The translations under genes were made by a program, and so were the position numbers. The notes beneath the pieces are model-generated. The model was not told where the DNA came from. It saw nothing but the letters and a program-made list of their open reading frames with translations, and did no database searches. Positions 6,681-63,456 of a DNA stretch of 64,000 nucleotides are shown here, piece by piece. The number at the start of each line of letters is the position of its first letter. The stretch's first letter is position 1. Location: IMG/VR virus record IMGVR_UViG_3300028802_000009, positions 9,142-73,141 of that record; one strand, 5' to 3'. Source of the stretch: a virus.

Positions 6681-7328
6681 TCAAGGGCTGCGCTCTTTCT
6701 TACGAATCTGCCGCAGAAGATCAGCGGCCTCCGTGACGGCGTCCGAAGTGGACTCTTCGCCCTGAATGCTGATGCGAGCGTCGAGGTCTTTATCCCGGAT
6801 CTGTCCCGGTAGAAACGTCGGCGCCGTACCGTCTACCGTTTCAACGACAACGGGCGCGGATGCCGCCGCAACAGCTGAAGGCGCCGCCGACGCGACAGCC
6901 GCGGGGGGCGCTACCGCCACGCCTGACTGAATCGCCTTGAGAATCTGATCAAGCTTGTCTGAATGCGCATGAGCGCTGCCCTCAAGCTGATGCTTCAAGG
7001 CTTCATTCTCGTTCTGGAGGCGCACCGCAAGGGCCTCCAACTGAGCCGCATACTTCTCCAGACGAACCTTTTCAGGGTCGGGCGCTGACGCTGCGCTCGG
7101 GTAAGGAGCCGATGGGACCTGACACAGGAAACCTTGCGAAATAGCTCGCCAGAGATCTTTAGACATCAAGGCTTGCTCCTCGGGTATGATCACCAACGTC
7201 CGGAAGGCAACGTCTCTGCCGATGTCCTCGATCACATGGTTGCCAGCAACCATTCCAATCACACGCACATCGCCCATCATCTTTTTCATCCATCGCTTCC
7301 CCACCAATTTGCATAGTAGGCGGCGCAT
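6681..7328 (-). CDS. Coiled-coil hypothetical protein
   Basis: Heptad segment EKVRLEKYAAQLEALAVRLQNENEALKHQLE followed by an Ala/Pro linker; start uncertain. Confidence 0.6.
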   Translation of the reverse strand: MRRLLCKLVGKRWMKKMMGDVRVIGMVAGNHVIEDIGRDVAFRTLVIIPEEQALMSKDLWRAISQGFLCQVPSAPYPSAASAPDPEKVRLEKYAAQLEALAVRLQNENEALKHQLEGSAHAHSDKLDQILKAIQSGVAVAPPAAVASAAPSAVAAASAPVVVETVDGTAPTFLPGQIRDKDLDARISIQGEESTSDAVTEAADLLRQIRKKERSP

Positions 7329-7329
7329 G

Positions 7330-7872
7330 TCAGCTAGACTTCCTCATGGATTTGCGCACTTGCTTCGCCACCTCGACCCTAAATTTCTTACGCAGAAACT
7401 CGCGAGTCTCTTCCTTGGCGCGCTCTATAAAGTCGGATGGTGGTCTTCCTGGATGCAACCAGCCTTTTTTCCGCCCAACATTTGGCCCTGTCATCGGCCC
7501 TTGCGTCCAAGTCAACGACCGCGCATGAGCGCTCCGGAAAATCAGCTTTCCTGTCTCCGTGATGATCGGGATTGGGCGCCGAGCCTTCTTGAGCCACCTC
7601 ATTTGCCCACGCTTTTGGCCTAGCACGAGGGCGTGAAACCCAGGATGGTCGGTTGTCACCACAAGAGACGCCGGCCGGGCCTCGATCTGAATGGATTTGA
7701 CAAGGGACTTCTTGGCTCTGACCGAGTACGTGGTCTGCGTGAGCTTACGCTTGAGACGGACCATCAGTTCCCGGCGTGCTTTACGCAAGACACTGCTCAT
7801 ATCGCCGATGGTGATCCCGTGCGGGAACAACGGCTTTACCATCATGCGGGCGGCTATGACCTTCTTGCCCAT
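7330..7872 (-). CDS. Basic neck/tail-completion-like protein
   Basis: ATG 7872 overlaps the upstream TAA (TAATG). Very basic, with PIPI...IFRSA...WLHPG, a pattern seen in phage neck-region proteins. Confidence 0.5.
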   Translation of the reverse strand: MGKKVIAARMMVKPLFPHGITIGDMSSVLRKARRELMVRLKRKLTQTTYSVRAKKSLVKSIQIEARPASLVVTTDHPGFHALVLGQKRGQMRWLKKARRPIPIITETGKLIFRSAHARSLTWTQGPMTGPNVGRKKGWLHPGRPPSDFIERAKEETREFLRKKFRVEVAKQVRKSMRKSS

Positions 7873-9233
7873 TAGTACTCGATGTTCTCCCAAACCTTAG
7901 TGCGGCCTCTAAGCTCCCGCTCATTCGGAATGTTTGGCTTCTCCGTGATGCTCGTATCGGCCTCGCGCTCGGGTCCGGACGGTGCGAATTGCACGGCCGC
8001 GAACTTCACTGGGTTGCCGACCGGAACCTGGTAACGGATGTCCTTCTCATCGAGGTGGCCGATGTTGAAATGCTGCTGAAGCACCATGCCGCGATTCGAG
8101 GGGAACCGAACGGCGCCTATCGCGTATCGCTCACCGTTGAGCTTCACCACGAAATCGCGCTGCGACAAGATAGGAGCCGGCCCTGTCCACACCTCATACG
8201 CGTGTTCGACAGTGCGCCCAGTCTCCTTTTGAGAGATACGGCGCTCTGCATCATCAGGTGCAATCAAGGCATCGTAGGGTCCCTCGTACCCACCTAGAAA
8301 CCCGGTGCCGTAGCACTTGGGACAGTCGTTGATAGGCTGCTTGTGATACCCGTCCGGGACGCACGAGCAAGGAACGCCGACGTGCTTGCGTAGAAATATC
8401 TTCACCCGCTCGCCGCCTTGCTCCAGGATGAAGCGATTGCGACGCACGGATTCGCGCCAGATGTAGTCGAGTTTTTCGATCTCCATCGAGTTCGTGGCGG
8501 TCGCAAACTCAATAGGTGTCTCGATCAAGTCTTCGCATTGCACCTGACTGAGGTCGCAGCCCACGCGAACACCGACACTAGTGACGCGATAGAAGACACG
8601 CTGCCCGAGATCCGTTCGTACCAGCTCGCGATTACGCCGATACGTGCAGGTTACCGTGCTGTTGGGTCCTGGCACCAAGGCCGGGTCGTAGTTCTGCCGC
8701 GCCACGTCCGCATGGACGTACGGGTTGATCTCTACTTCGCCCGAAAACCCGTGCACCGCCAATGGAGTGACAGTGACTCCGTCGATTTTGACCCAGACAT
8801 CATCCGGCAGATCTGCTGTGACAGCTTGCGAGCCCTCGCGCACGATCGGGCTATGCAATGTCTTGAAGACCCAACGCGGTGCGTCCGGACCGGCAGCCGA
8901 CTCTCCTTCGCCTTTGAGAACGAACCTGTCCGTGACATCTTCATCTACGATCAGCTCGTTATCGGTCTGGTCGCGCCAAAAGTTGCTACAGATGAGCAAC
9001 TCTGAGATGCGCTCAAAAGGTCCGTACTCAGAGTCGAACGAGCGATAGAGGTTGACCCCGAGCAGCTGGTAGAGGCTGTTCAAGGCAAGTGTCGCTGGGG
9101 AGTCCCACCGGAGATCAAAGATTCCGGGCCGGTACCCACTGGTCATAAAAAGATTGAGCGGGGGCAGCGGCCAAGGAGTCTTTGTGTACTCTAGCTCTGT
9201 GGTGTTCCAATCGCGATTTGATGCGTAAGGCAC
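7872..9233 (-). CDS. Putative head-closure/neck protein with Cys cluster
   Basis: CSC...CPKCYGTGFLGGY motif followed by a beta-barrel-like segment (QRDFVVKLNGERYAI); neck-block synteny. Confidence 0.55.
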   Translation of the reverse strand: MPYASNRDWNTTELEYTKTPWPLPPLNLFMTSGYRPGIFDLRWDSPATLALNSLYQLLGVNLYRSFDSEYGPFERISELLICSNFWRDQTDNELIVDEDVTDRFVLKGEGESAAGPDAPRWVFKTLHSPIVREGSQAVTADLPDDVWVKIDGVTVTPLAVHGFSGEVEINPYVHADVARQNYDPALVPGPNSTVTCTYRRNRELVRTDLGQRVFYRVTSVGVRVGCDLSQVQCEDLIETPIEFATATNSMEIEKLDYIWRESVRRNRFILEQGGERVKIFLRKHVGVPCSCVPDGYHKQPINDCPKCYGTGFLGGYEGPYDALIAPDDAERRISQKETGRTVEHAYEVWTGPAPILSQRDFVVKLNGERYAIGAVRFPSNRGMVLQQHFNIGHLDEKDIRYQVPVGNPVKFAAVQFAPSGPEREADTSITEKPNIPNERELRGRTKVWENIEY

Positions 9234-37000: not shown

Positions 37001-37043
37001 AATTAAAGAAAAGAGGCCGATCCATCTCTGGACCAGCCTCTTT
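37001..37043 (-). terminator. Rho-independent terminator after the major capsid gene
   Basis: AAAGAGGCTGGTCCA-GAGA-TGGATCGGCCTCTTT followed by TCTTTAATT. Confidence 0.85.
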
Positions 37044-52827: not shown

Positions 52828-53241
52828 TCATTTCCCAACGGGCTTAGTGCCGCCTCCCCCATCGGTCTCCACCAAATACTGGCTGAGGTTCTTCACCGTG
52901 GCGTACCCCTTGTCTTTGGGGATCTGCTTCCGAATCGCCGTCTCCATGTCCTGATAGTCGTCACTGACACCCGGCCAGCCCTTGTTGACTAGGTCGAGGA
53001 CATTCATGTTGTTTGGCTTCGGCTGAAACACGTCCTGTGGGCGTAGGTCACGACGATCCGGATCAATGGTATCAGTACGGCGAAGGTCAGTTGTGACGTA
53101 GTCCTTGAGCGTCGTCTTGGACATGCCTTTGGCCTTGTTGATTGGGCCAACCAGGTCTTTGACGTTCTTGCGCGCACCGGGGCCTTGGTCCGCTTTCTTG
53201 AAGCGGGCCGCAACACGCATGGCTACGCGACTGAATGTCAA
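52828..53241 (-). CDS. Small basic putative head-internal protein
   Basis: Begins SRVAMRVAARFKKA. Confidence 0.6.
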   Translation of the reverse strand: MTFSRVAMRVAARFKKADQGPGARKNVKDLVGPINKAKGMSKTTLKDYVTTDLRRTDTIDPDRRDLRPQDVFQPKPNNMNVLDLVNKGWPGVSDDYQDMETAIRKQIPKDKGYATVKNLSQYLVETDGGGGTKPVGK

Positions 53242-55238
53242 AGCTTGACCTCCCCCTGGCCGAACATAATCGTCACGTCTCGCGGCGCCTCGGTCGCTTT
53301 GACATCGACCACGATCTCATTCTGCATCTGGAATTCATCCACCATCGAGGCTCCGTTATTCACGAGGTCCGCGTAAGCGATCGACGTAGAGCTACCGGAT
53401 GCCAGTACGGCTCGCTGCTGCGCCACCTTGTCTGTGTAAGGCGGCTCAGTGACCAGCGGCTTGTTGATCTTGGAGCAATACCCCGTCTTCACCTGATGCA
53501 CGCAGCTCATGCATTTCGAGCCGTACTTGAGGTACGGAACGCCGCGCGAGCCATAGAGACGACTTGCCTCATCACAGCCCTTGCCATAATCGTCATACAC
53601 GGAAGGGTCGAGGTAGTAGACCCCCTGCAGCCCTTGCTCAGCGACCACTCTCCGCAGCTCTTGTTTCGACGCCACAAGATCGCGTGGGTCGAACTGAGTC
53701 TTGAGCGCGGCGATAAGGTCCCGCCCATACAGGCCCTCGTTCATGTATCGAGACGCCTGCTTGATGACCTCTTTGCGCGCCACGCCACTTGTGGCGTACT
53801 CGGGCGTGTCGCCGTAGAAGCCTGTCATGGCTCCAAGCCGCTCCGGAGCCCCTGCCACCGACCGTGCAGAAGTACGAACAGCGTGATGAATCGCCTTCAA
53901 AGCCTGACTTGGGCTATCGCCCCAGCTCGCCGCCGTCTTAGTATTCAGCCCCGGCAAGCGACCCGCGGTGCGATGCTCAAGCAGCACGGCGTCCACAGTC
54001 TCCTGTGTGAGGATGTCCGCAGCTTGCTTCACCAGCGGTTTGCCGTAGAGCAAGCATCGCGTCTTGTTGTAGATGCAGGAGCCGCACTTCGATCCGGCCA
54101 CGATGGCTCGAACCGTTGGGTTGTGCTTCGCCAAGAAGTCGGCGCCCTCGTGGCAATCTTGGAAGCTGGCCTGCTTCGTGTAGATCACGCCATAAAGCCC
54201 AGTCTCTTTTAGGATCGGCGCCCAGTGACTGTGGGTACGACGCAGCACGCTCTCATCAAAAGCTAGCCGAAGAGAGCTAGCCGTCTCGGCGTGGGACAAG
54301 CCCTTAACCATCTGACGGTGCAAGAAATCCTGGACGGGCTTGGCCTCAACGGCGAGCTGGTCCTGAGCCAGCTTGCCCTTCAAAAGCGACGACGCCTCAA
54401 TCAGCTGCTCACGCGCCTGCACAGGGGTGGGTAACGCCGGCTTGTGCTGGTTGAGGCCCTGTCCTGCGTAGGCTTCAGATCGCCCGCTCCCCGGCGCCAA
54501 GTAAGCCGCCCTGATGCGCTCCTTGGCGGAAGGCGCGTCCGATGCCTGGATGATGCGACCGCGGGCCGCCTGAGACCGCTCCACGGAACCTGCGAGCTTG
54601 TCCGTGTACGGTACCTCGCTGACCAATGGGCGACCGAACTGGCTGCAATGGCCCGGCGCATTCGGCTGCGCCGTCCGGCAGTGTGGGCACCCGCCGCACC
54701 CAGTCTTGGAGAGGACGTAGCGCGAAGTCGGGGCGTGCTTGTTGATCAAGGCCGTGGCCTTCGCCGGGTCGAGCCCAGAAAAATCGTCAGCCACCACGTA
54801 GTAACGGCCGACAAGCCCGCGCTCCTTGAGCACAGACGCCAATACCTCGCGGTGCTCCCGGAGAACCTCCACAGGATAGCGGCGCCGTAGTTCGCTTCGC
54901 AGCCGAGCGGTGTCATCCGACTGCAGCAAACTCAGCCTAGCCACCTTGGCGATTTCTTCCCCTTTGGGGCGGAGCTTGCCGTGAACCTGAGACAGGTCCC
55001 CCATCGTATGAGGATCGTTGATCCCAACGTTGGGAACCGTCTGCACGTTCGGGATCAAATAAGCCGTCGCAGACTCGCCCTCGCGAGCCCACAGAGCCTC
55101 TAGGTCGGGCCTGATGTCGAGGTTCTGCTTCGGCAGTAGCGCCTCAGCTCGATACTTCTCTTCATCAACATCGAGCCAGTCCAGATCCGAGATCGCCGCA
55201 TCTTTCAGAAATCCACTTAGGTCTAGTTCAGCCATCAC
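53238..55238 (-). CDS. Protein with three repeated Cys-rich domains
   Basis: E.GL.G.(Y/I)Y...CxxC...C....(R/K)PLV occurs three times. Confidence 0.7.
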   Translation of the reverse strand: MMAELDLSGFLKDAAISDLDWLDVDEEKYRAEALLPKQNLDIRPDLEALWAREGESATAYLIPNVQTVPNVGINDPHTMGDLSQVHGKLRPKGEEIAKVARLSLLQSDDTARLRSELRRRYPVEVLREHREVLASVLKERGLVGRYYVVADDFSGLDPAKATALINKHAPTSRYVLSKTGCGGCPHCRTAQPNAPGHCSQFGRPLVSEVPYTDKLAGSVERSQAARGRIIQASDAPSAKERIRAAYLAPGSGRSEAYAGQGLNQHKPALPTPVQAREQLIEASSLLKGKLAQDQLAVEAKPVQDFLHRQMVKGLSHAETASSLRLAFDESVLRRTHSHWAPILKETGLYGVIYTKQASFQDCHEGADFLAKHNPTVRAIVAGSKCGSCIYNKTRCLLYGKPLVKQAADILTQETVDAVLLEHRTAGRLPGLNTKTAASWGDSPSQALKAIHHAVRTSARSVAGAPERLGAMTGFYGDTPEYATSGVARKEVIKQASRYMNEGLYGRDLIAALKTQFDPRDLVASKQELRRVVAEQGLQGVYYLDPSVYDDYGKGCDEASRLYGSRGVPYLKYGSKCMSCVHQVKTGYCSKINKPLVTEPPYTDKVAQQRAVLASGSSTSIAYADLVNNGASMVDEFQMQNEIVVDVKATEAPRDVTIMFGQGEVKL

Positions 55239-57148
55239 CGCTCTCCGTCTTTCTGATTGATGTATGGCCCGTCATCGTCTCGCTGGTACAACGGGTCCGG
55301 ACGCATATTGCGGGTGGAATGATCCCACTTTACGTAAGGCTGGTTTTGCTCGTGCCGGTAACCGATACCCGGTTGAACATCCATAGAATGGTCGTCAGAG
55401 GCGTCTGCCTCCGCAGGCAATTCAGAGTTCGAGAACATGTGCTCACGATAATGCGCCGGTCGAGGGCTCACACGTCTAGGCTGTCCTGGGAATGACTGCC
55501 CTGGCACCTTGGAAGATCCGACATTGCTCGGACCTACGTTGACGGGATTCGACCCCTTGTCTCCGCCGCGGTAATAGTCAGATCTCGCGACAGGCGGCTG
55601 ACCATCGTTCGGCAGATTTGACTGCCCTCTACGCGCTTGCCGATTGCTACGACCCATCTCCATCTCGATGGCCGGGGTCGTGTCACTCTCATCATCGTGC
55701 AGCTTGCCAGCGGGGTCGCTCGGCAACTTGGAAGACGGCCCAAAAACACCCTTCCCATCAGGGTCCTTTTCGCCGTAACCGCCCGCCCCCTGACCATGAG
55801 CATCGTTGCCATCGCCGTACCCGATGCCGAAGTCCCAACCTTCAGTCGGGGTGTTATCGGTATACCTACCGGGCATCCTGGAGTCGGCACTCTTCAACAA
55901 GCCCCGCTGGTCCATCAACATGAAATCGTCGAGGTCCTTTTTCGTAAGCTTGTACTTGCGTGCACCGTGGGTAGTTAGAATCTGAGCTGGCGGTCGGCCC
56001 TTCTTGATCAAATCTACGATGCCTCGAATGGTGTTGACGTCCGGCGCGTCTTGGTCTAGCCGCTCGTCATACTCAATGAGTGACGGCCATGCCGGCTGCC
56101 GACCCGCCGCCTTATCCGGCAACGCGTTCTCCCACTCAGACTCGTAGAGATAGTCCTTCCCAGCTCCGTCCTCCCTGCTCCACTCGTCACGCATAGACGG
56201 CGGTTCATCGGAGTTATAGGAGCCGAACGGACCCGTCTGATCGGTGTCTGCGCGGTCCATGTGCTGGACACGCGGCCCGCCAGACATCGTCTCCACGGGG
56301 ATCGATGAGTTGGCGTACCGCCGCGCGATCCGCTCAACCAAGGTCTCCGAACGAGAGGAAGCCGTCTTTACCTTCCCAGACTCGCTGTCGGGCATATCCT
56401 CCGCGTCGGGCACTTCGGAGCCGCCTTCTTCATCCTCGTCTTCCTCGTCTTCATCCTCGTCCTCCCCTTTCCCCTTGAAAGCGGGTGGAGGCGGGGTCTG
56501 AAAGCGCTCATCGGACTCCGGGTTCGAGACTTCACCTTCCTCAAGTTCGGCTTGCTCGCCCTTCTCTTCGGCCTGATTCAAACCGTCCTGTACGAAAGAC
56601 TCATCTTCGGGATTCTCAAGAACGCGCTCGGCATCTCCGACCAAGCGCTCGACACTCTCCACGTCTTGGCTTTCCAGCTCGCCCAACTTTGGGCGCCAGT
56701 GCGGGGCGTGAAGCTCATCGTGGATGGTATCTGAAACCGACGAGATAGCTTCGCACGCGTCATGCAAGGCGCCGCGGACATCCTTGACTGACATCACGTA
56801 GCCCCGACCGCCGATGAGGCCATCCGGTGAGATGGTCGCCGACTTGAGCTTCGTGAACTCCCGGTGCGCCGTCATCGCGTGCCCGAGAGAGATACTCAGC
56901 GTCCACAGCATCCGAGCCAGCGGCTTCAAGGCGCGGGGGTCGTAGTCGTAATCATTCGGGATCGCCCTTCGCATCGAAGTCGAGGGGCCGATCGACGCCT
57001 TATCCGGACGCTCCGGTTGCGCCGCAACACCCGCGGGATCGACCGCATCCTCTAGCCCGGCTTGTCTCAGGTGGTGTCTCAGGCGCGTCTGCTCAGAGGC
57101 GCGAAGGTGGCGCCGTAAAGCAGCTAGGGTCTTCTTGCGAGTTTCCAC
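55235..57148 (-). CDS. Acidic, disordered putative internal head protein
   Basis: KTAS, RIARRYA, KSA and RQA motifs; repeated S-x-[LIMV]-P. Confidence 0.65.
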   Translation of the reverse strand: METRKKTLAALRRHLRASEQTRLRHHLRQAGLEDAVDPAGVAAQPERPDKASIGPSTSMRRAIPNDYDYDPRALKPLARMLWTLSISLGHAMTAHREFTKLKSATISPDGLIGGRGYVMSVKDVRGALHDACEAISSVSDTIHDELHAPHWRPKLGELESQDVESVERLVGDAERVLENPEDESFVQDGLNQAEEKGEQAELEEGEVSNPESDERFQTPPPPAFKGKGEDEDEDEEDEDEEGGSEVPDAEDMPDSESGKVKTASSRSETLVERIARRYANSSIPVETMSGGPRVQHMDRADTDQTGPFGSYNSDEPPSMRDEWSREDGAGKDYLYESEWENALPDKAAGRQPAWPSLIEYDERLDQDAPDVNTIRGIVDLIKKGRPPAQILTTHGARKYKLTKKDLDDFMLMDQRGLLKSADSRMPGRYTDNTPTEGWDFGIGYGDGNDAHGQGAGGYGEKDPDGKGVFGPSSKLPSDPAGKLHDDESDTTPAIEMEMGRSNRQARRGQSNLPNDGQPPVARSDYYRGGDKGSNPVNVGPSNVGSSKVPGQSFPGQPRRVSPRPAHYREHMFSNSELPAEADASDDHSMDVQPGIGYRHEQNQPYVKWDHSTRNMRPDPLYQRDDDGPYINQKDGER

Positions 57149-57149
57149 G

Positions 57150-57419
57150 TTAGCCTTTCAGGGCCTCTCCGTTGTCATCAAACAAGCGCTCGATGAAATA
57201 CTGGCCGTCTGCCTCTTTCTTGAGCGCCCAAAGCTCGCGCTCGCTCCGGTGAATCAGCGTCTCAGCTGACAGACGAATGAAACCCTTGAGGTCCACCATC
57301 GAAGCCACCTTTCGGCGCCCGGACCCGTGTGGCTTCAAAATATGCTCTTCGCGCTGAAGCATGGCATCCAAACCAACAGCACCGGACATCACCATGTTGC
57401 CTAGATCGAAATCGGCCAT
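57150..57419 (-). CDS. Small hypothetical protein
   Basis: SD GAGG; RKVAS; LIHRSERELW. Confidence 0.65.
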   Translation of the reverse strand: MADFDLGNMVMSGAVGLDAMLQREEHILKPHGSGRRKVASMVDLKGFIRLSAETLIHRSERELWALKKEADGQYFIERLFDDNGEALKG

Positions 57420-57426
57420 CTTTCCC

Positions 57427-58323
57427 TCACGAAATGTTGAGTGTCACAACAACGTCTACACTCATGTTGGAGCTATACCCAGTAATTCTAAGCGTCTCCG
57501 TGTAGACACCCGACAACATGCCATTCGGCGGGGCTACCGCGACGGTAATGGGCTGCATGCTGCCCCCATTGATCGAACCATAAACCGGCGAGACGCTCGC
57601 CAGCCAAGGCACACCAACCAGGCGGCGGATCTGATAGTCGAGGACGCTGGAACCCAGCCCGCTGTTGAACAGCGAAAGCTGCTGAGACGGGATCGGTGGG
57701 AAATCCCCAGCGAACGGCGCCCCCACGTAGAACGACAAAGCCGTAGGCGCCGGGGATATCGTCGCCTTGGGTCTGACGGTCACCGCTACAGGTATTACCT
57801 GCGGACTGTTAGAAGCCGCACTACTCTGCACAGTCAGCCCCGCAGTGTACGGGCTCCCGCTTGCAAGCAAGTACGTGCTATCAACGGACACATCGAAGCT
57901 GCCTGATGCGTTGGCAACCAGCCCACCAATATTGGCAGGCATCGCAATCACATAAGGAGCCGACGACGTGATCTGGACACTCAGCAGAGACCCCAAGATA
58001 CCGTTGTTCGTAACGCGGATCGGCGCCGAGGCCGACACTCCACGCCCCTCATCAAGCACAAAGACCAGCGAAACCGGGTCGAGCAGGATCGACGGCGGGT
58101 ACGCCAAGAGAACCTGCTGGATCGAATCGGCCATCGCCTGCACGACTTCACCGGGGATCGGGATGGAGTCCCGCAGCAAGCCGTAAGGAGTGATCACGTC
58201 GCGGACCTCTGTCTGGACTTGCGCCTTTGAGACGTCCACGCGCGTAGTCCAGCGCCAAGCCCCGCTCGCAAGCGACACCTCGAATTGATAGTCTTGGAAC
58301 CGGAGTAGGGATTGGATCGCCAA
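57427..58323 (-). CDS. Protein with two BACON/Ig-like domains
   Basis: Start set to TTG 58323 (SD GAGG); VPWLASVSPVYGSI...ITVAV...GVYTETL. Confidence 0.65.
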   Translation of the reverse strand: MAIQSLLRFQDYQFEVSLASGAWRWTTRVDVSKAQVQTEVRDVITPYGLLRDSIPIPGEVVQAMADSIQQVLLAYPPSILLDPVSLVFVLDEGRGVSASAPIRVTNNGILGSLLSVQITSSAPYVIAMPANIGGLVANASGSFDVSVDSTYLLASGSPYTAGLTVQSSAASNSPQVIPVAVTVRPKATISPAPTALSFYVGAPFAGDFPPIPSQQLSLFNSGLGSSVLDYQIRRLVGVPWLASVSPVYGSINGGSMQPITVAVAPPNGMLSGVYTETLRITGYSSNMSVDVVVTLNIS

Positions 58324-58350
58324 CGAACAGTCCTCGACTATCCCCGGACC

Positions 58351-58359
58351 ACAAAAGGA
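58351..58359 (-). promoter_or_regulatory. Putative late promoter element (TCCTTTTGT) at the start of the structural cluster
   Basis: Extended context CTTTTGTGGTCC is identical to the copy upstream of the sheath gene. Confidence 0.5.
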
Positions 58360-58411
58360 AACGGGGGTTAGGCTGGCCCCGGCAACCCCCACCTAGCTCG
58401 ACAATAGTCCA

Positions 58412-59038
58412 TCACAGACAGCGGTCTAATCCGCGATTGCTCCACTGTGGCAACGAAACGGCACGAAGGATGTTGAACTTCTTCGAGGATATCGAGGTGA
58501 AAATCTTTTCGTAAGGACGGAATAGCTCGTTGTGCCCTGCCGCGATCTTGAGCTTGCCGACCGCCTTGAAGAAGCGATGCCGAACGCGCCCCTGAGTCAG
58601 CTGGAGGCTATTGGCGACCTCCGACTGGCAAGTCGTCTGCCACATGCCGACCAGAATATCGACATCGATCTGGTCGAACAGTTCACGAAGGTCCTCGCGC
58701 AGCTCTTCCTCCGTGACCGCTGGGATCGCCAACAGGAACTTCAGCCGCTGAATCCCCCTGTCCAATCGATAGCTAATCGCCGCCTGTGTCACATCAAATA
58801 TCTCGGCGATGTCCGCTTGCCGCTTTTTGCACACATAGTACAGATAGATCAAATCAGCTTCGCGCTCCGGGATTCGGTCCAACAAGGGAGCGATCCTGGT
58901 CTCATAGTCGCCACTTGAAAACAACGCCGATACGTCTTCCGACTCGGGCGGGACATCATCATCTAACAAGACGGCCGGCGCCGCGAAACGATTTGCCAAC
59001 TCTGCGGGATCGACAGGGATCACATAACCATTGGACAT
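58412..59038 (-). CDS. Transcription factor with tandem sigma70 region-4-like HTH domains
   Basis: IPEREADLIYLYY...QADIAEIFDVTQAAISYRL and a second HTH QSEVANSLQLTQGRVRHRF; no region 2 recognised. Confidence 0.7.
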   Translation of the reverse strand: MSNGYVIPVDPAELANRFAAPAVLLDDDVPPESEDVSALFSSGDYETRIAPLLDRIPEREADLIYLYYVCKKRQADIAEIFDVTQAAISYRLDRGIQRLKFLLAIPAVTEEELREDLRELFDQIDVDILVGMWQTTCQSEVANSLQLTQGRVRHRFFKAVGKLKIAAGHNELFRPYEKIFTSISSKKFNILRAVSLPQWSNRGLDRCL

Positions 59039-59066
59039 GAAGCCTCCTCAACACGAAACACTAGTT

Positions 59067-60770
59067 TTACATGCCCACGTCGGACACTGCTTCGGTGTGC
59101 GGTGGCGCCGCGAAGAACGCCGTCAAGATTGAATCCGGACGAATACTCAGCGCCTTAATCCGTGCGTGGGCGGCCTCTTGATCTTTGTTTGGTTTGATTT
59201 GGCTGAACGGCACGTCACGTAGAGACATCAGCTCTATGTTCAGCAGGACCTGTTTTGAACTCGCCCGAAGACTGGCTGCTTGCGCCTTAGTCAGGCCGGC
59301 TAGATTCGACTGAAAGAGTGTGCGGACCGTTCCATATGGCTTCAATGCCTTGGCTGCGGTCTTCAACCCAAAACCTGGCGCGCCGGGAATGTGGTCGGAC
59401 GTATCGCCACTGATTGCCCGGAGCTGAACCATAGAGCGCGGAGGTACCCCGTACTCGGCCTCAACGCCGGCTGGGTCGTACAATTTCTCTTTGGCGCCCC
59501 CCGCAGCGGGGCACAGCTGATGCGTGAACTCGGTGACCACCTGAAGCAGGTCTCGATCAGAGGTGATGATCAAGTTAGTTGCGCCACTAAGCGGGCCTCG
59601 CACAAGAGCGGCCATCACGTCGTCAGCCTCCTCCTCGGGGTTGAAGGCTTGATGCACACCCATCATTGGCAGAACCTCGCGTAGCCAAGCCCAGCCAAAG
59701 GAGGGCTCTTCGGACCGTGAAATCCTGTTGCCCTTGTACCCCTCGAACATCGCTTTGCGACGTTGCGAGCTACCATCCCAACAGATATAGATAGAACCTG
59801 AAGGAAATCGTTTGCGATACGCAGCCACGCTACGTAAGAAGCCGACGACCCCCCCGGTCCGTCGCCCCTGACTATCAGTCAGCGCACCTAGTCCAGGGGC
59901 CTCCATGCACCGGATGAGAAGTTGCGTCCCGTCGATCACAAGATTCAATGTTGGGCTTTGTTCCATGGGTGTTGCACGTACAGGGTTGAGCCGAGATGAC
60001 AATTCCTCCAGAGTTTGCAGCGCGTGAGACTTCTCTATGAGGAGTGAGAGGTCTAAGACTGAGTAGAATGCGTTGAACCAACGATACAGACACACACTGC
60101 GGTCGACCCATTCCTCCAGGCGGTATACGGCCGCCGCCCGCCCCCTCAAACCGTCCAGCCTATTGTTTGGCCAGTGCGCGACCTTACGAACAGACTCAAT
60201 CCAACTGCCGATGCGCCGAATGCGCTCCCGATACGACGTGTCTGGCGACTTAGACTCAAGGCGAAGAAAGGCCCTCGGCAAGGTAACAAGCCGGTCCGTG
60301 GACCTGAGGTGGATATGCACCACCACGGAGTCTTGCTCTAGTATCTCATCACGGACCGTTGCCTTGATATTCTTGTAGGGGCCGGAGACTATGGTTACGG
60401 CGTCCCCGACCTCGATACCCTGGTCTACCTCAACCGTGATCTGTGCCCGCAGTGTCTCGATTTGCACGTTCGAGACGGTTGCCAGTTTCTTCTCACGCCG
60501 ATTTCCGGATAGTCGATAGAGCGGAGCCTGGACGTACTTAGTTTCCTCCAGCCTCACGTAACAGTGGTCCGGGTGCCTATGGCGAACGAACGCGTAGCCG
60601 TCGACCAGGTATTTGAACTCCCGAATCGGGCCGCGTTGCACCACTGACGCTGGTATGAAGACCTCAGCATCTCGAATATGATGCCGTATCGAGGCTACGA
60701 TAGTATCAGGGTCCTCACCCTCAGCCTTGGTCGTAAGCTCAAGAACCACCCATTGAATGTCACTACTCAT
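59067..60770 (-). CDS. NusG-like (NGN+KOW) domain fused to a 5'-3' exonuclease/flap endonuclease
   Basis: QWVVL...VFIP...GYAFV and VGDAVTIVSGPY (KOW), then LVIDG, WDG, YKGNR, EADD, SDRD, GDTSDHIPG..G.KTA. Confidence 0.85.
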   Translation of the reverse strand: MSSDIQWVVLELTTKAEGEDPDTIVASIRHHIRDAEVFIPASVVQRGPIREFKYLVDGYAFVRHRHPDHCYVRLEETKYVQAPLYRLSGNRREKKLATVSNVQIETLRAQITVEVDQGIEVGDAVTIVSGPYKNIKATVRDEILEQDSVVVHIHLRSTDRLVTLPRAFLRLESKSPDTSYRERIRRIGSWIESVRKVAHWPNNRLDGLRGRAAAVYRLEEWVDRSVCLYRWFNAFYSVLDLSLLIEKSHALQTLEELSSRLNPVRATPMEQSPTLNLVIDGTQLLIRCMEAPGLGALTDSQGRRTGGVVGFLRSVAAYRKRFPSGSIYICWDGSSQRRKAMFEGYKGNRISRSEEPSFGWAWLREVLPMMGVHQAFNPEEEADDVMAALVRGPLSGATNLIITSDRDLLQVVTEFTHQLCPAAGGAKEKLYDPAGVEAEYGVPPRSMVQLRAISGDTSDHIPGAPGFGLKTAAKALKPYGTVRTLFQSNLAGLTKAQAASLRASSKQVLLNIELMSLRDVPFSQIKPNKDQEAAHARIKALSIRPDSILTAFFAAPPHTEAVSDVGM

Positions 60771-60796
60771 TCTTAGTAATGGGTCCTACACCTCAA

Positions 60797-62245
60797 TCAA
60801 GAATCCGGGGTATCAACTGACCTCTTTTTGTGAAGCCGTAGAAACTCGGCACGCCAAGCGGCGGGGGCTAAACCTTGTTGGTTACCCCGAGGCTTAGACT
60901 CGACTGGCGCCGGATTTTGCTTAGCACGCTGCCGGGGTTGACTTCGGCCGGACGCGGTCTCCTCGATAGGCGAGTCAGGTGGTGTTGGGTCTGTGAAGCC
61001 TAGCCCGAACTGCGCACCCACTGGTTCCGTCGTTGGCCGACCAGGGGTAGCAATCGTAGGTACATGGTCAGGCACAATCTCGCTCACGACCTCGTCAGGT
61101 GAAAGCTCCTCGATCGTTACTTCTGGCGCCGGGTCCACGATCACCAGCTGAGGCGCGCTCGAAACCTGACTGATAAACACCACCGGTGGCTGCGCCGTCT
61201 CGGGCGGCAACCTCCCCGCGTTCTGAGAGAAGGCAAGGATGTCTAGTTCGAGCGTCAACCTCGTTACATTGCGGTGCCCCAAGAACCACTTTGAGAATTT
61301 GACAACATGGTCCTGATACTTGCTGTAGACCTGACCCGCCAAGTTCTTATCGACATAGGCAAGGTCCGCGTGCCACCGATGAGCCATCCGGTAGCAGTTC
61401 ATCGCTGCCTCAGCCAAGCCCGCCGCGACCTCATCTGCCGGCGTGGCCTCACAAGCTTGGCGAAGCAAGTCGATAGCCTTGAGCGGATCGTCCAGGCTCA
61501 ACAGGATCTGGTAGTAGAGGGTGACGACCGAGAGATTCAGATACTCGCGAACACTGTCGACCGTGATGGCCCCAAGCTGGGAGACCATTTCAAGATTGTT
61601 GAGCGCGTTACGGACGTGGCCGCCCGCCCGATCGATGATGATCAAGACAGCTTCATCATCGTGTTGCACCCCCTGCTCATCGAGCACCATCTTCATGCGG
61701 GGCAACACGTCTTCACGCGTGGCCTTCTTGATCGTGTATTCCTCGCACCTGGAGCGGATAGCGCCACGAATCTTCTCTGCCTCCGTGGTGCAGAGGATGG
61801 CAACCATCTTTTTCTCTTCGATGGGCTTGAGAAGCACATCTTGAGCCGCATGGTGCATCCGCTGGCACTCGTCGATCAGGTAAATCCGCTTCGGGGCGTT
61901 CGACAGAGCATAGGGTAGCTCCTCGACCAAGGTCCGCATACTATCCGTTGACCCGCTACTCGCCGCGTCCCGCTCGGTGAACGCCTCAGACTGCTCCTGC
62001 AGGATGTCCTTACAGCTATCGCACTGACCGCACGGTTCCGGATCCGCCTGATTCAGATCCTGGCAGAGCATCGCCATCGCATGGATACGGCTCAGGGTCG
62101 TCTTACCCTGGCCGTACCCACCTGCGAAGATGTAGCTGGTATCAAACGCCGTGCCCCTCATGATCCGAGTCTTGAGGAGGCGGACACTGCCGGTTTGACC
62201 CAGAACATCCGAGTACTTGCGTGGCCGATACAAAATGTCCCACAC
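60797..62245 (-). CDS. dnaX: DNA polymerase III gamma/tau-like clamp loader subunit
   Basis: YRP...VLGQ, GGYGQGKTT, CGQCDSC, IDE, IRSRC. Confidence 0.9.
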   Translation of the reverse strand: MWDILYRPRKYSDVLGQTGSVRLLKTRIMRGTAFDTSYIFAGGYGQGKTTLSRIHAMAMLCQDLNQADPEPCGQCDSCKDILQEQSEAFTERDAASSGSTDSMRTLVEELPYALSNAPKRIYLIDECQRMHHAAQDVLLKPIEEKKMVAILCTTEAEKIRGAIRSRCEEYTIKKATREDVLPRMKMVLDEQGVQHDDEAVLIIIDRAGGHVRNALNNLEMVSQLGAITVDSVREYLNLSVVTLYYQILLSLDDPLKAIDLLRQACEATPADEVAAGLAEAAMNCYRMAHRWHADLAYVDKNLAGQVYSKYQDHVVKFSKWFLGHRNVTRLTLELDILAFSQNAGRLPPETAQPPVVFISQVSSAPQLVIVDPAPEVTIEELSPDEVVSEIVPDHVPTIATPGRPTTEPVGAQFGLGFTDPTPPDSPIEETASGRSQPRQRAKQNPAPVESKPRGNQQGLAPAAWRAEFLRLHKKRSVDTPDS

Positions 62246-62766: not shown

Positions 62767-63456
62767 TCACGCGAGTGGGTCTTTAGATTTGACCAGCCCT
62801 TGGATGTACGGGATGAATCGCGAGTCGCCCCAAGCTTCCCACAAATCGCCCGGGTCCTTGGCGCTGCCCAGTACCGGATACGACACGATATACACCTCCA
62901 GATCACTGCCGTGATCCCGAAGGAAAGTGGAACAGCCGCGCCGGCCAGCCGCATCCATGTCGTAACCAACCCAGACACGCGCCACCAAACGCTTTAGCAA
63001 CCTGGCGAACATGGGGCTTGTCCGCGCTGTCAACGTGGCGACGACGGGCGTAAAAGCCCGTTGAATCGGGAAGAGATCGAAGGCGCCCTCAACAATGAAC
63101 GCCGACCGTGTGTCCCACATGGCCCGCGCCGCTTGCCCTAGACCGAAAAGACAGGCCTCATCCTTGTCGGGTAAATAGTCCGAGTACCCTGATTTATCTC
63201 GCTCGACACCGCGAACCTGGAAGCCTCTGATGTCGCCGTAAACATTCGTCAGCGGAAGCAAGAGAACGTCACTGATTTTCCCTTCCGCCCAAACACGGAA
63301 CTCGTCCGGCACCCCCTCCGGCAGATCCTTGTCTAGATGACCGATTCTGTATTGAGCCATCTGAGCATCCGAGACCCCACGCCCGAGCAGCTCGTCCCGG
63401 ACCCGAGCGTCTACCCGAGGCACTGCATAGGCAACCAGGTCGTCCATCCAGCTCAT
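62767..63456 (-). CDS. dnaG: DnaG-type primase (catalytic/TOPRIM core only)
   Basis: RGVS...YRIG, LFGL, IVEGAFD, YDMDAAG, KDPGD. Confidence 0.8.
   Translation of the reverse strand: MSWMDDLVAYAVPRVDARVRDELLGRGVSDAQMAQYRIGHLDKDLPEGVPDEFRVWAEGKISDVLLLPLTNVYGDIRGFQVRGVERDKSGYSDYLPDKDEACLFGLGQAARAMWDTRSAFIVEGAFDLFPIQRAFTPVVATLTARTSPMFARLLKRLVARVWVGYDMDAAGRRGCSTFLRDHGSDLEVYIVSYPVLGSAKDPGDLWEAWGDSRFIPYIQGLVKSKDPLA

Follow-up and report, generated by a model that had tools for sequence, protein, structure and literature searches.

A NusG module and a flap nuclease in one reading frame

The window analysed here is a 64,000-nucleotide (nt) stretch of virus DNA, positions 9,142 to 73,141 of IMG/VR record IMGVR_UViG_3300028802_000009, a 73-kb record whose completeness was judged to be 15%; its long open reading frames (ORFs) lie almost all on the minus strand. 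Our subject is the minus-strand gene at 59067..60770, which appears in the ORF list as one uninterrupted frame of 567 amino acids (aa) and in which a module of the NusG transcription factor family is joined to a 5'-3' exonuclease of the DNA polymerase I (Pol I) type, that is, a flap endonuclease (FEN). Read from its N-terminus, the protein comprises an NGN domain (aa ~1-105; 60456..60770), a KOW domain (aa ~115-175; 60246..60428), a linker that is helical by structure prediction and variable by column identity (aa 176-272; 59955..60245), the nuclease core recognized by PF02739 and PF01367 (aa 273-525; 59196..59954), and a conserved C-terminal tail motif, D-S-I-L-T-A-F-F (aa 546-553; 59112..59135), all on the minus strand. 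The ATG of Met269 (59964..59966, minus strand), seven codons upstream of the FEN core, is a possible internal start. After a gap of 28 nt comes a gene (58412..59038, minus strand) for a 208-aa protein with tandem domains resembling sigma factor region 4, called the sigma4-like protein below; GAGGAGG stands 5 nt upstream of its ATG.

A first-pass annotation, made from the sequence without database searches, had placed an NGN-plus-KOW module at about aa 1-170. Alone, the N-terminal half from the window gives only sub-threshold KOW matches in Pfam, together with a match to a PHROG family named 'transcription antiterminator'. Across the family the signal is clearer, Pfam NusG being matched by 21 of 30 aligned N-terminal halves and KOW by 28 of 30 (E <= 1). 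A profile built from these halves matched the solved NusG structures 2lq8 (E 9.2e-9), 2xhc (E 1.3e-6) and 1m1g (E 5.9e-4), over NGN as well as KOW. The AlphaFold2 model has a mean predicted local distance difference test score (pLDDT) of 85.5, and a Foldseek search with the N-half model gave 43 PDB matches at E <= 1e-3. The 47 listed rows with E <= 1.7e-3 are chains of NusG, RfaH or Spt5 or else Spt5-containing complexes, with two ribosome entries (E 1.1-1.2e-3) as the exceptions; many of the matched NusG, RfaH and Spt5 structures were solved on RNA polymerase (RNAP). The arrangement typical of NusG and Spt5 is present, with an NGN alpha/beta domain and, at its C-terminal side, a KOW domain that a single prediction models as a beta-barrel. 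By profile and predicted structure, therefore, the N-terminal half is a bona fide NusG module (NGN plus KOW, aa ~1-175) with an NGN fold, as had been proposed; it is the family alignment, profile and structure that settle its identity, and not the window sequence alone.

The nuclease half is recognized directly. The 5_3_exonuc_N domain (PF02739) spans aa 277-441 (E 9e-25; 87.7 bits against a cut-off of 34.3) and the 5_3_exonuc domain (PF01367), with the H3TH/SAM fold, spans aa 442-520 (E 5e-14; 53 bits against a cut-off of 40); the PIN-like N-terminal domain and the H3TH/SAM-fold domain are thus both in place. Ten acidic residues, D280, D332, E380, E381, D383, D384, D405, D407, D456 and D459, are invariant in all 27 aligned homologues and align with the Pol I motifs; we take them to be distributed over two metal sites. 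Among solved structures, Pol I (6vde, E 3.4e-27) and Taq polymerase (E 4.4e-24) come closest, with FenA next after the Pol I-type structures and ExoIX far weaker. On these alignments the nuclease looks intact, in line with the acidic catalytic motifs noticed at first reading. Outside the part that aligns with Pol I, tail residues F552 and F553 are conserved at 90% or more in the 27-homologue alignment, and a motif of the type hydrophobic-hydrophobic-x-x-F-F lies within the last 60 aa of 100 of the 119 full-length matches. The tail presumably resembles clamp-docking peptides; that it is itself a docking peptide is a guess.

The fusion is a single gene across a family of large phages

Full-length matches to the fusion were found at 44 loci in IMG/VR, on contigs of up to 529 kb, and these collapse to 33 lineages. 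The fusion is a single ORF at 43 of the 44 loci, or in 32 of 33 lineages, with identities of 32-86%, and it could be aligned end to end with 27 full-length homologues. The best 120 database matches listed are 35-100% identical to the window fusion; all are 536-840 aa long except P0053, at 370 aa. Many of them carry the JGI pipeline name '5'-3' exonuclease/transcription antitermination factor NusG'.

An artefact of assembly, or a frameshift, could in principle have joined two separate genes, and a single locus offers this explanation some footing: L029 (L029:2806-4561) is the sole one in which the fusion is divided, within the linker, into two overlapping ORFs. The L029 split could be a frameshift or a sequencing error. 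The artefact would, however, have to recur at the other 43 loci, in many independent assemblies, and in the best 120 listed matches, on all of which the FEN Pfam domain was precomputed and 119 of which are 536-840 aa long. A second assembly of the probable source run gives the same stretch with no indel; this is not independent evidence. Besides that run, only one other, with a small share, was found to contain the stretch, and no RNA data set was listed as containing it. We give the artefact practically no credence and regard it as refuted for practical purposes. The NusG module and the nuclease are genuinely fused in one protein, which confirms the original observation of an uninterrupted 567-aa ORF, and homologues are one gene and not two. 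The conservation of this arrangement indicates that both modules are held in one frame by selection.

None of 195 matches in cultured-phage records covers 80% or more of the fusion, only the FEN half being covered, and in species-representative prokaryote genomes an end-to-end match was found at only two of the 80 best loci, both on contigs of at most 7 kb in bins of metagenome-assembled genomes. The architecture is therefore a phage feature. Only five short relatives of the N-terminal half were found; of two of these, P0122 and P0124, the latter falls in a 90% cluster with a 635-aa full-length protein.

An exhaustive search with the N-half profile returned 458 representatives at E <= 1e-3, 77 of them at E <= 1e-30. 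Architectures were counted for the best 150 of the 458: 52 combine NGN-KOW with FEN, 50 are stand-alone proteins of at most 215 aa, 37 have a C-terminal extension (at least one of these, P0128, is a truncated fusion) and 11 have an N-terminal extension. P0182 (541 aa), known from one sequence on a contig of 18 kb, carries an NGN-KOW of the same clade behind sigma regions 2 and 4, and P0185, P0186 and P0187 have NGN-KOW followed by HTH_3 or CI-type (CI-repressor) helix-turn-helix (HTH) domains. In P0091 / P0268 (840 aa), found in two assemblies, the NusG-FEN protein reads through into a complete sigma4-like protein, and the 90% cluster of this read-through protein also contains a 206-aa sigma4-like protein on its own.

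Gene order around the fusion is kept at all 44 loci as far as the contigs reach: primase, metallopeptidase, clamp loader, fusion, sigma4-like gene, and then the homologues of four window genes, p321, p89, p637 and p666. The clamp-loader gene upstream and the sigma4-like homologue downstream are present at 44 of 44 loci. In 43 of them no more than about 150 nt separate the fusion from the start of the sigma4-like gene; in L012 this start lies 1.6 kb further on.

A sister phage shows the same order with the nuclease missing. In LR745208.1, a 485-kb record from an uncultured phage, locus L155 (413359-427868) contains a clamp loader, a stand-alone 207-aa NusG-like protein, a sigma4-like protein, p89, p637 and p666; the NusG-like and sigma4-like ORFs lie at 6977-7600 and 7585-8178 of the locus. 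No PF02739 match, and no gene of the FEN family, was found anywhere in this record. The NusG and sigma4-like pair is therefore the older conserved core to which the nuclease was added later, and the comparison places that addition in the clade that includes the window phage.

A variable linker and a conserved start before the nuclease

The linker is predicted to form two helices, aa 176-198 and aa 212-261, at lower confidence (pLDDT 54-88), which bears out the helical linker described from the sequence. The linker is of the short form in the window and longer by ~90 residues in many relatives. Mean column identity is 0.71 in NGN-KOW, 0.39 in the linker and 0.71 in the FEN core, so that the frame stays open through a fast-evolving spacer.

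Of 33 lineages, 25 have an ATG at most nine codons ahead of the FEN core, where a chance of 0.116 per lineage would be expected (binomial p 2e-17; the lineages are related). Counting any start codon within that distance, the number rises to 31 of 33, the exceptions being L024 and L043. A Shine-Dalgarno (SD)-like sequence precedes this boundary start in 17 of 31 lineages, compared with 198 of 1308 other in-frame start codons (Fisher p 6e-7). In the window itself no SD-like sequence was found upstream of Met269 (ATG 59966), as had been stated from the letters alone. With a start codon kept shortly upstream of the FEN core in 31 of 33 lineages, a free nuclease as a second product is plausible for the family; for this phage it is uncertain.

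These starts favour a reading of the gene as two functions that share a frame and little else: an antiterminator for the late cluster in the N-terminal half and an ordinary Okazaki or repair flap nuclease, largely made free from the internal start, with no mechanistic coupling between them and a fusion that serves co-expression or timing only. The SD-like sequences, at 17 of 31 against a background of 15%, and the weak conservation of the linker would suit it, as would the sister phage, in which NusG and sigma4-like proteins occur without FEN. Against it stands the frame itself, open through a linker of 25% identity in 43 of 44 loci and 32 of 33 lineages, since a full-length product that was useless would be hard to reconcile with a frame so kept. 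Two lineages (L024 and L043) moreover have no start codon at the FEN boundary, and Met269 of the window lacks an SD sequence. We consider this explanation possible, if rather unlikely.

The sigma4-like neighbour

The protein encoded immediately downstream matches Sigma70_r4 in two stretches (E 5.6e-15). Its first HTH domain, of the sigma region 4 type, covers aa ~41-106 (58721..58918, minus strand) and its second, a diverged sigma4/LuxR-type HTH, aa ~107-186 (58481..58720, minus strand); when the two halves are aligned with each other, the HTHs coincide (hhalign probability 92.8%, E 3.9e-7). The predicted model consists of the two HTH domains and short tails only. The protein is highly conserved in the family, its N- and C-terminal tails strongly so. 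No Sigma70_r2 match was found in Pfam at E <= 0.1, and since region 2 is missing, the 208-aa protein is not classed as a sigma factor. This is the composition that the first-pass annotation had described, two sigma region 4-like HTHs without a recognizable region 2.

There is a weak PHROG match to 'anti-termination protein Q-like' (phrog_79, E 0.0025). No Q structure is among the 50 structure-search rows listed for this protein, nor is a fold of the T4 gp33 type among the rows listed; absence from those rows is not evidence. A predicted complex of the fusion with the sigma4-like protein scored 0.18, with a mark of 0.32, and carries no weight either way.

Within the sigma4-like gene, a minor variant contig of the probable source run differs from the window at 29 of 211 positions (58601-58811). 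Most of the 24 variant sites listed are a multiple of three apart, the pattern that purifying selection on a related, co-occurring strain would produce.

A conserved element in front of the virion cluster

The spacer after the sigma4-like gene contains a conserved 13-nt T-rich element at 58351..58363 (minus strand; family consensus GGTTTTCTTTTAT), recognized by cross-locus alignment and a position weight matrix (PWM) built from 14 sites. It lies ~30-35 nt upstream of the conserved TTG or GTG start of the p321 homologue. When a whole locus of ~13.7 kb is scanned on either strand, the top PWM hit falls just ahead of the p321 homologue, as it does in 32 of 40 loci (23 of 31 when tallied by lineage), and in 20 of the 27 loci outside the set used to build the matrix. 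Where genes are inserted after the sigma4-like gene, the element remains with the p321 homologue. It is absent from locus L155 of the FEN-less sister phage. In the window the 13-nt pattern has one match, a number equalled by 32 of 100 shuffles, so the weight of the element rests solely on its conservation across loci. Weaker copies occur in intergenic gaps of the window near 37014 and 19837.

This region had been put forward as the site of the first late promoter. No sigma70-type promoter was found in window positions 57000-61000, where 1.6 would be expected, so a promoter of that familiar kind is not what lies here; the conserved element does sit there and is a candidate late promoter or loading/recruitment site. 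Terminator-like sites in the same interval number 4, against 3.5 expected. The spacer was also considered as a terminator, and this was rejected, a hairpin abutting a T-tract being present in just 3 of 34 loci and the fold of the window sequence having a z score of -1.16.

Neighbouring genes and genome context

Directly upstream of the fusion, at 60797..62245 on the minus strand, is a clamp-loader (DnaX-like) gene (PF13177, E 3.9e-27; phrog_5846, E 2.7e-48), and further upstream, at 62767..63456 on the same strand, a Toprim primase-like gene (PF13155, E 3.7e-7; phrog_47, E 3.5e-13), so that the DnaX and primase noted at first reading are both there. A phage metallopeptidase-like gene also lies upstream on this strand. 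Downstream, again on the same strand, four genes without a family match precede genes for the large terminase, portal, protease and major head protein and tail-like genes, in a virion cluster of ~58 kb, all on a single strand. The four, p321, p89, p637 and p666 (window 53238-57419 and 57427-58392, minus strand), have no Pfam or PHROG match but keep their synteny in nearly all relatives, and p637 contains a long acidic stretch of low complexity. The start called for the 321-aa ORF (57427-58392, minus strand) is probably too early: its homologues have 295-308 aa, and their alignment shows a conserved TTG or GTG start near 58324 with GAGG before it.

Genome content was surveyed in five near-complete relatives (412-529 kb; CheckV completeness 87-100%; two with terminal repeats). 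Each of the five has exactly one FEN gene and one NusG-like gene, and both are the fusion. The RNAP beta' (PF04997) and beta (PF00562) domains were found in none of the five, with the proviso that very divergent phage RNAPs could escape such a search; the host RNAP is thus the likely target. DnaN domains (PF02768, PF00712) were also found in 0 of 5, where a divergent clamp could likewise escape, and so was DnaE (PF07733). Sigma70_r2 was found in one of five. The result for PF00940, 0 of 5, is uninformative because its control was silent.

In G003, a complete relative, 20 kb on the upstream side of the fusion encode an NAD-ligase, a RecD2-like helicase, RuvC-like, RecA/UvsX-like and SbcCD-like proteins, PD-(D/E)XK nucleases, a primase and an intein-bearing clamp loader; no sliding clamp was recognized there. 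From the content on its two sides, the fusion marks the end of the DNA metabolism genes and the start of the sigma4-like and virion genes. Replication, recombination and ligase genes upstream are also what one would expect if the nuclease had an ordinary role uncoupled from the NusG module. The clamp loader is ~900 aa long in L156:52-2790 (G003), L012 3236-5974 and L020 3278-5992, where it carries an intein with a LAGLIDADG domain, and the SbcD-like gene of G003 has a LAGLIDADG-type insert too.

The place of the gene bears on a suggestion made in the first-pass annotation, that the fusion acts as a 'torpedo'. Its nuclease would then degrade nascent RNA 5'->3' behind RNAP and thereby terminate or clear transcripts. 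Formally, a 5'-3' nuclease tethered to RNAP is what this needs, and it is only the architecture that speaks for it. The enzyme, however, is a structure-specific flap nuclease of the Pol I type, and flap enzymes are distinct from exoribonucleases of the Xrn or RNase J type. A terminator at the head of a ~58-kb virion cluster, next to a factor of the NusG type, would moreover oppose expression of that cluster. The idea fits a Pol I-type flap nuclease poorly, and we think it very improbable.

A nuclease possibly held at the transcribing polymerase

The architecture points to a possible physical connection of transcription with DNA replication or repair. The reading that we prefer, to which we would assign a probability of roughly one half, is that of a phage-specific NusG paralogue that bears the sole flap nuclease of the phage on a long, flexible helical tether and holds it at RNAP. 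The NGN domain would dock on the host RNAP as NusG, RfaH and Spt5 do, and with the sigma4-like protein it would make up an operon-specific module, enabling RNAP to transcribe a late cluster that is long and confined to one strand. In this way the Pol I-type 5' nuclease on its tether would be kept at the elongation complex, where it could cut 5' flaps or the ends of RNA:DNA hybrids (R-loops, primers, nicks) at places where transcription meets replicating or recombining phage DNA. Free nuclease from the internal start may meanwhile do ordinary lagging-strand processing. R-loops offer a rationale for such an arrangement: a NusG paralogue that excludes Rho would raise their number, and a 5' nuclease on a tether, acting in an RNase-H-like way, would clear them. 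The suppression of R-loops by NusG and Rho is stated in the accessible text of PMC11551753.

In favour of this proposal, the N-terminal half is conserved as strongly as the nuclease (0.71 each), and the context is, to judge from the genes, one of transcription: a sigma4-like gene at 44 of 44 loci, the 840-aa read-through protein, and fusions of NGN-KOW with sigma or HTH domains. The frame kept open in nearly all relatives, the single copy of FEN and of NusG per genome, the failure to find RNAP beta or beta' in the five near-complete relatives and the D15 precedent in T5 count for it too. Several observations weigh on the other side. Binding to RNAP, or action at the elongation complex, is something that we infer from sequence and model. 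The window's own N-terminal half lies below the Pfam cut-offs for NusG and for KOW. The existence of a FEN-less sister phage implies that the transcription module works without the nuclease, and the weak conservation of the linker implies no fixed geometry. With its conserved and often SD-preceded start, the nuclease may act mainly as a free enzyme, and the ligase and the RecA-, SbcCD- and RuvC-like neighbours in G003 would fit an ordinary role of FEN in replication and repair.

The tether could also have another anchor. NGN-KOW might attach the nuclease to the replisome, to the ribosome (through a contact of the KOW-S10 type) or to some other phage protein, in which case the gene would be a replication factor. 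We regard this as quite unlikely.

The proposal of a nuclease tethered at RNAP can be extended into a switch for late genes that responds to the state of the DNA and is formed by the NusG-FEN protein, the sigma4-like protein and the 13-nt element. The nuclease domain, or the FF tail docked on a clamp that the loader encoded next door has put in place, would sense nicks, flaps and primer ends as the NGN domain holds the host RNAP, and late transcription would be licensed only on replicating templates. Such a switch is unlikely on present evidence. If it exists, it would be a NusG-based analogue of the clamp-coupled late transcription of T4 and would give a mechanistic account of the D15 requirement in T5.

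Comparison with known systems

The NGN-plus-KOW two-domain fold is common to the fusion and to RfaH, LoaP, UpxY, ActX/TaA and the housekeeping NusG/Spt5 proteins. To our knowledge NusG/Spt5 is the sole transcription factor family conserved in all life, and we know of no NusG paralogue that carries an enzyme, the known ones acting through protein-protein contacts. Like the fusion gene, specialised paralogues stand at the head of long operons of horizontally mobile genes, beside the target cluster; that they are encoded next to the clusters they act on is stated in the accessible text of PMC7819879. Unlike them, the fusion has a flap nuclease domain of ~300 aa on a linker of 95-185 aa, and no such fusion appears in that text. 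It is also phage-encoded, and its partner is always a tandem sigma4-type protein and not of the ops or UpxZ type. A candidate counterpart of an RfaH-type recruitment element is the 13-nt element that precedes the p321 homologue in 32 of 40 loci. As to the autoinhibited, fold-switching KOW domain of RfaH-type paralogues, the single model shows a beta-barrel, and the domain may have an alternative state as well. The NusG of T. maritima, which the family profile matches best by sequence (2lq8, 2xhc), resembles the fusion in having an extra domain, an inserted DII domain according to the accessible text of PMC7819879. DII differs in being an insertion that stabilises RNAP binding and not a C-terminal catalytic domain.

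The nuclease half shares PIN-like and H3TH domains and the acidic set with the Pol I 5' nuclease, T5 D15, FenA and ExoIX, all of which are free-standing or fused to a DNA polymerase, in contrast to the fusion to an elongation factor described here.

In late transcription of T4, the gp45 clamp and the gp44/62 loader act together with gp55 and the small, sigma-fragment-like gp33. The logic is similar here, where a replication-linked component and sigma-fragment-like proteins come together in the adjacent clamp-loader, NusG-FEN and sigma4-only genes. It differs in that no gp55-like region 2 protein (Sigma70_r2, 1 of 5 near-complete relatives) and no recognizable clamp (DnaN, 0 of 5) was found, and in that the RNAP adaptor is NusG-like; the comparison is one of logic, and protein homology to T4 is no part of it. 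The layout of a regulator gene, a short control region and a long single-strand late operon recalls that of lambda Q. Unlike the lambda case, no conserved hairpin-plus-U-tract terminator follows the regulator gene (3 of 34 loci), and the NusG-like factor is encoded by the phage. For T5, the precedent invoked in the first-pass annotation was found in the literature: the accessible text of PMC12673091 states that the D15 FEN is essential for late gene expression.

The claim that no NusG-FEN fusion had been characterised is likewise consistent with the literature consulted: the accessible texts, including the NusG review PMC7819879, describe no NusG-nuclease fusion, and supplements of huge-phage papers may list such genes. 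Annotation pipelines already label both halves; the fusion adds to the known NusG paralogues one that carries an enzyme.

If the fusion does deliver a DNA/RNA flap nuclease to the elongation complex, this would be a new way to handle conflicts between transcription and replication, or R-loops; alternatively, it would couple late gene expression to replication. Whether or not the nuclease is attached, the conserved pair of NusG and tandem sigma4-like proteins has the look of a module for late transcription in huge phages that has yet to be described. The fusion belongs to the core genes of a widespread clade of phages, 400-530 kb in size, which apparently depend on the host RNAP, and it offers a testable handle on the requirement for a flap nuclease in the late transcription of T5.

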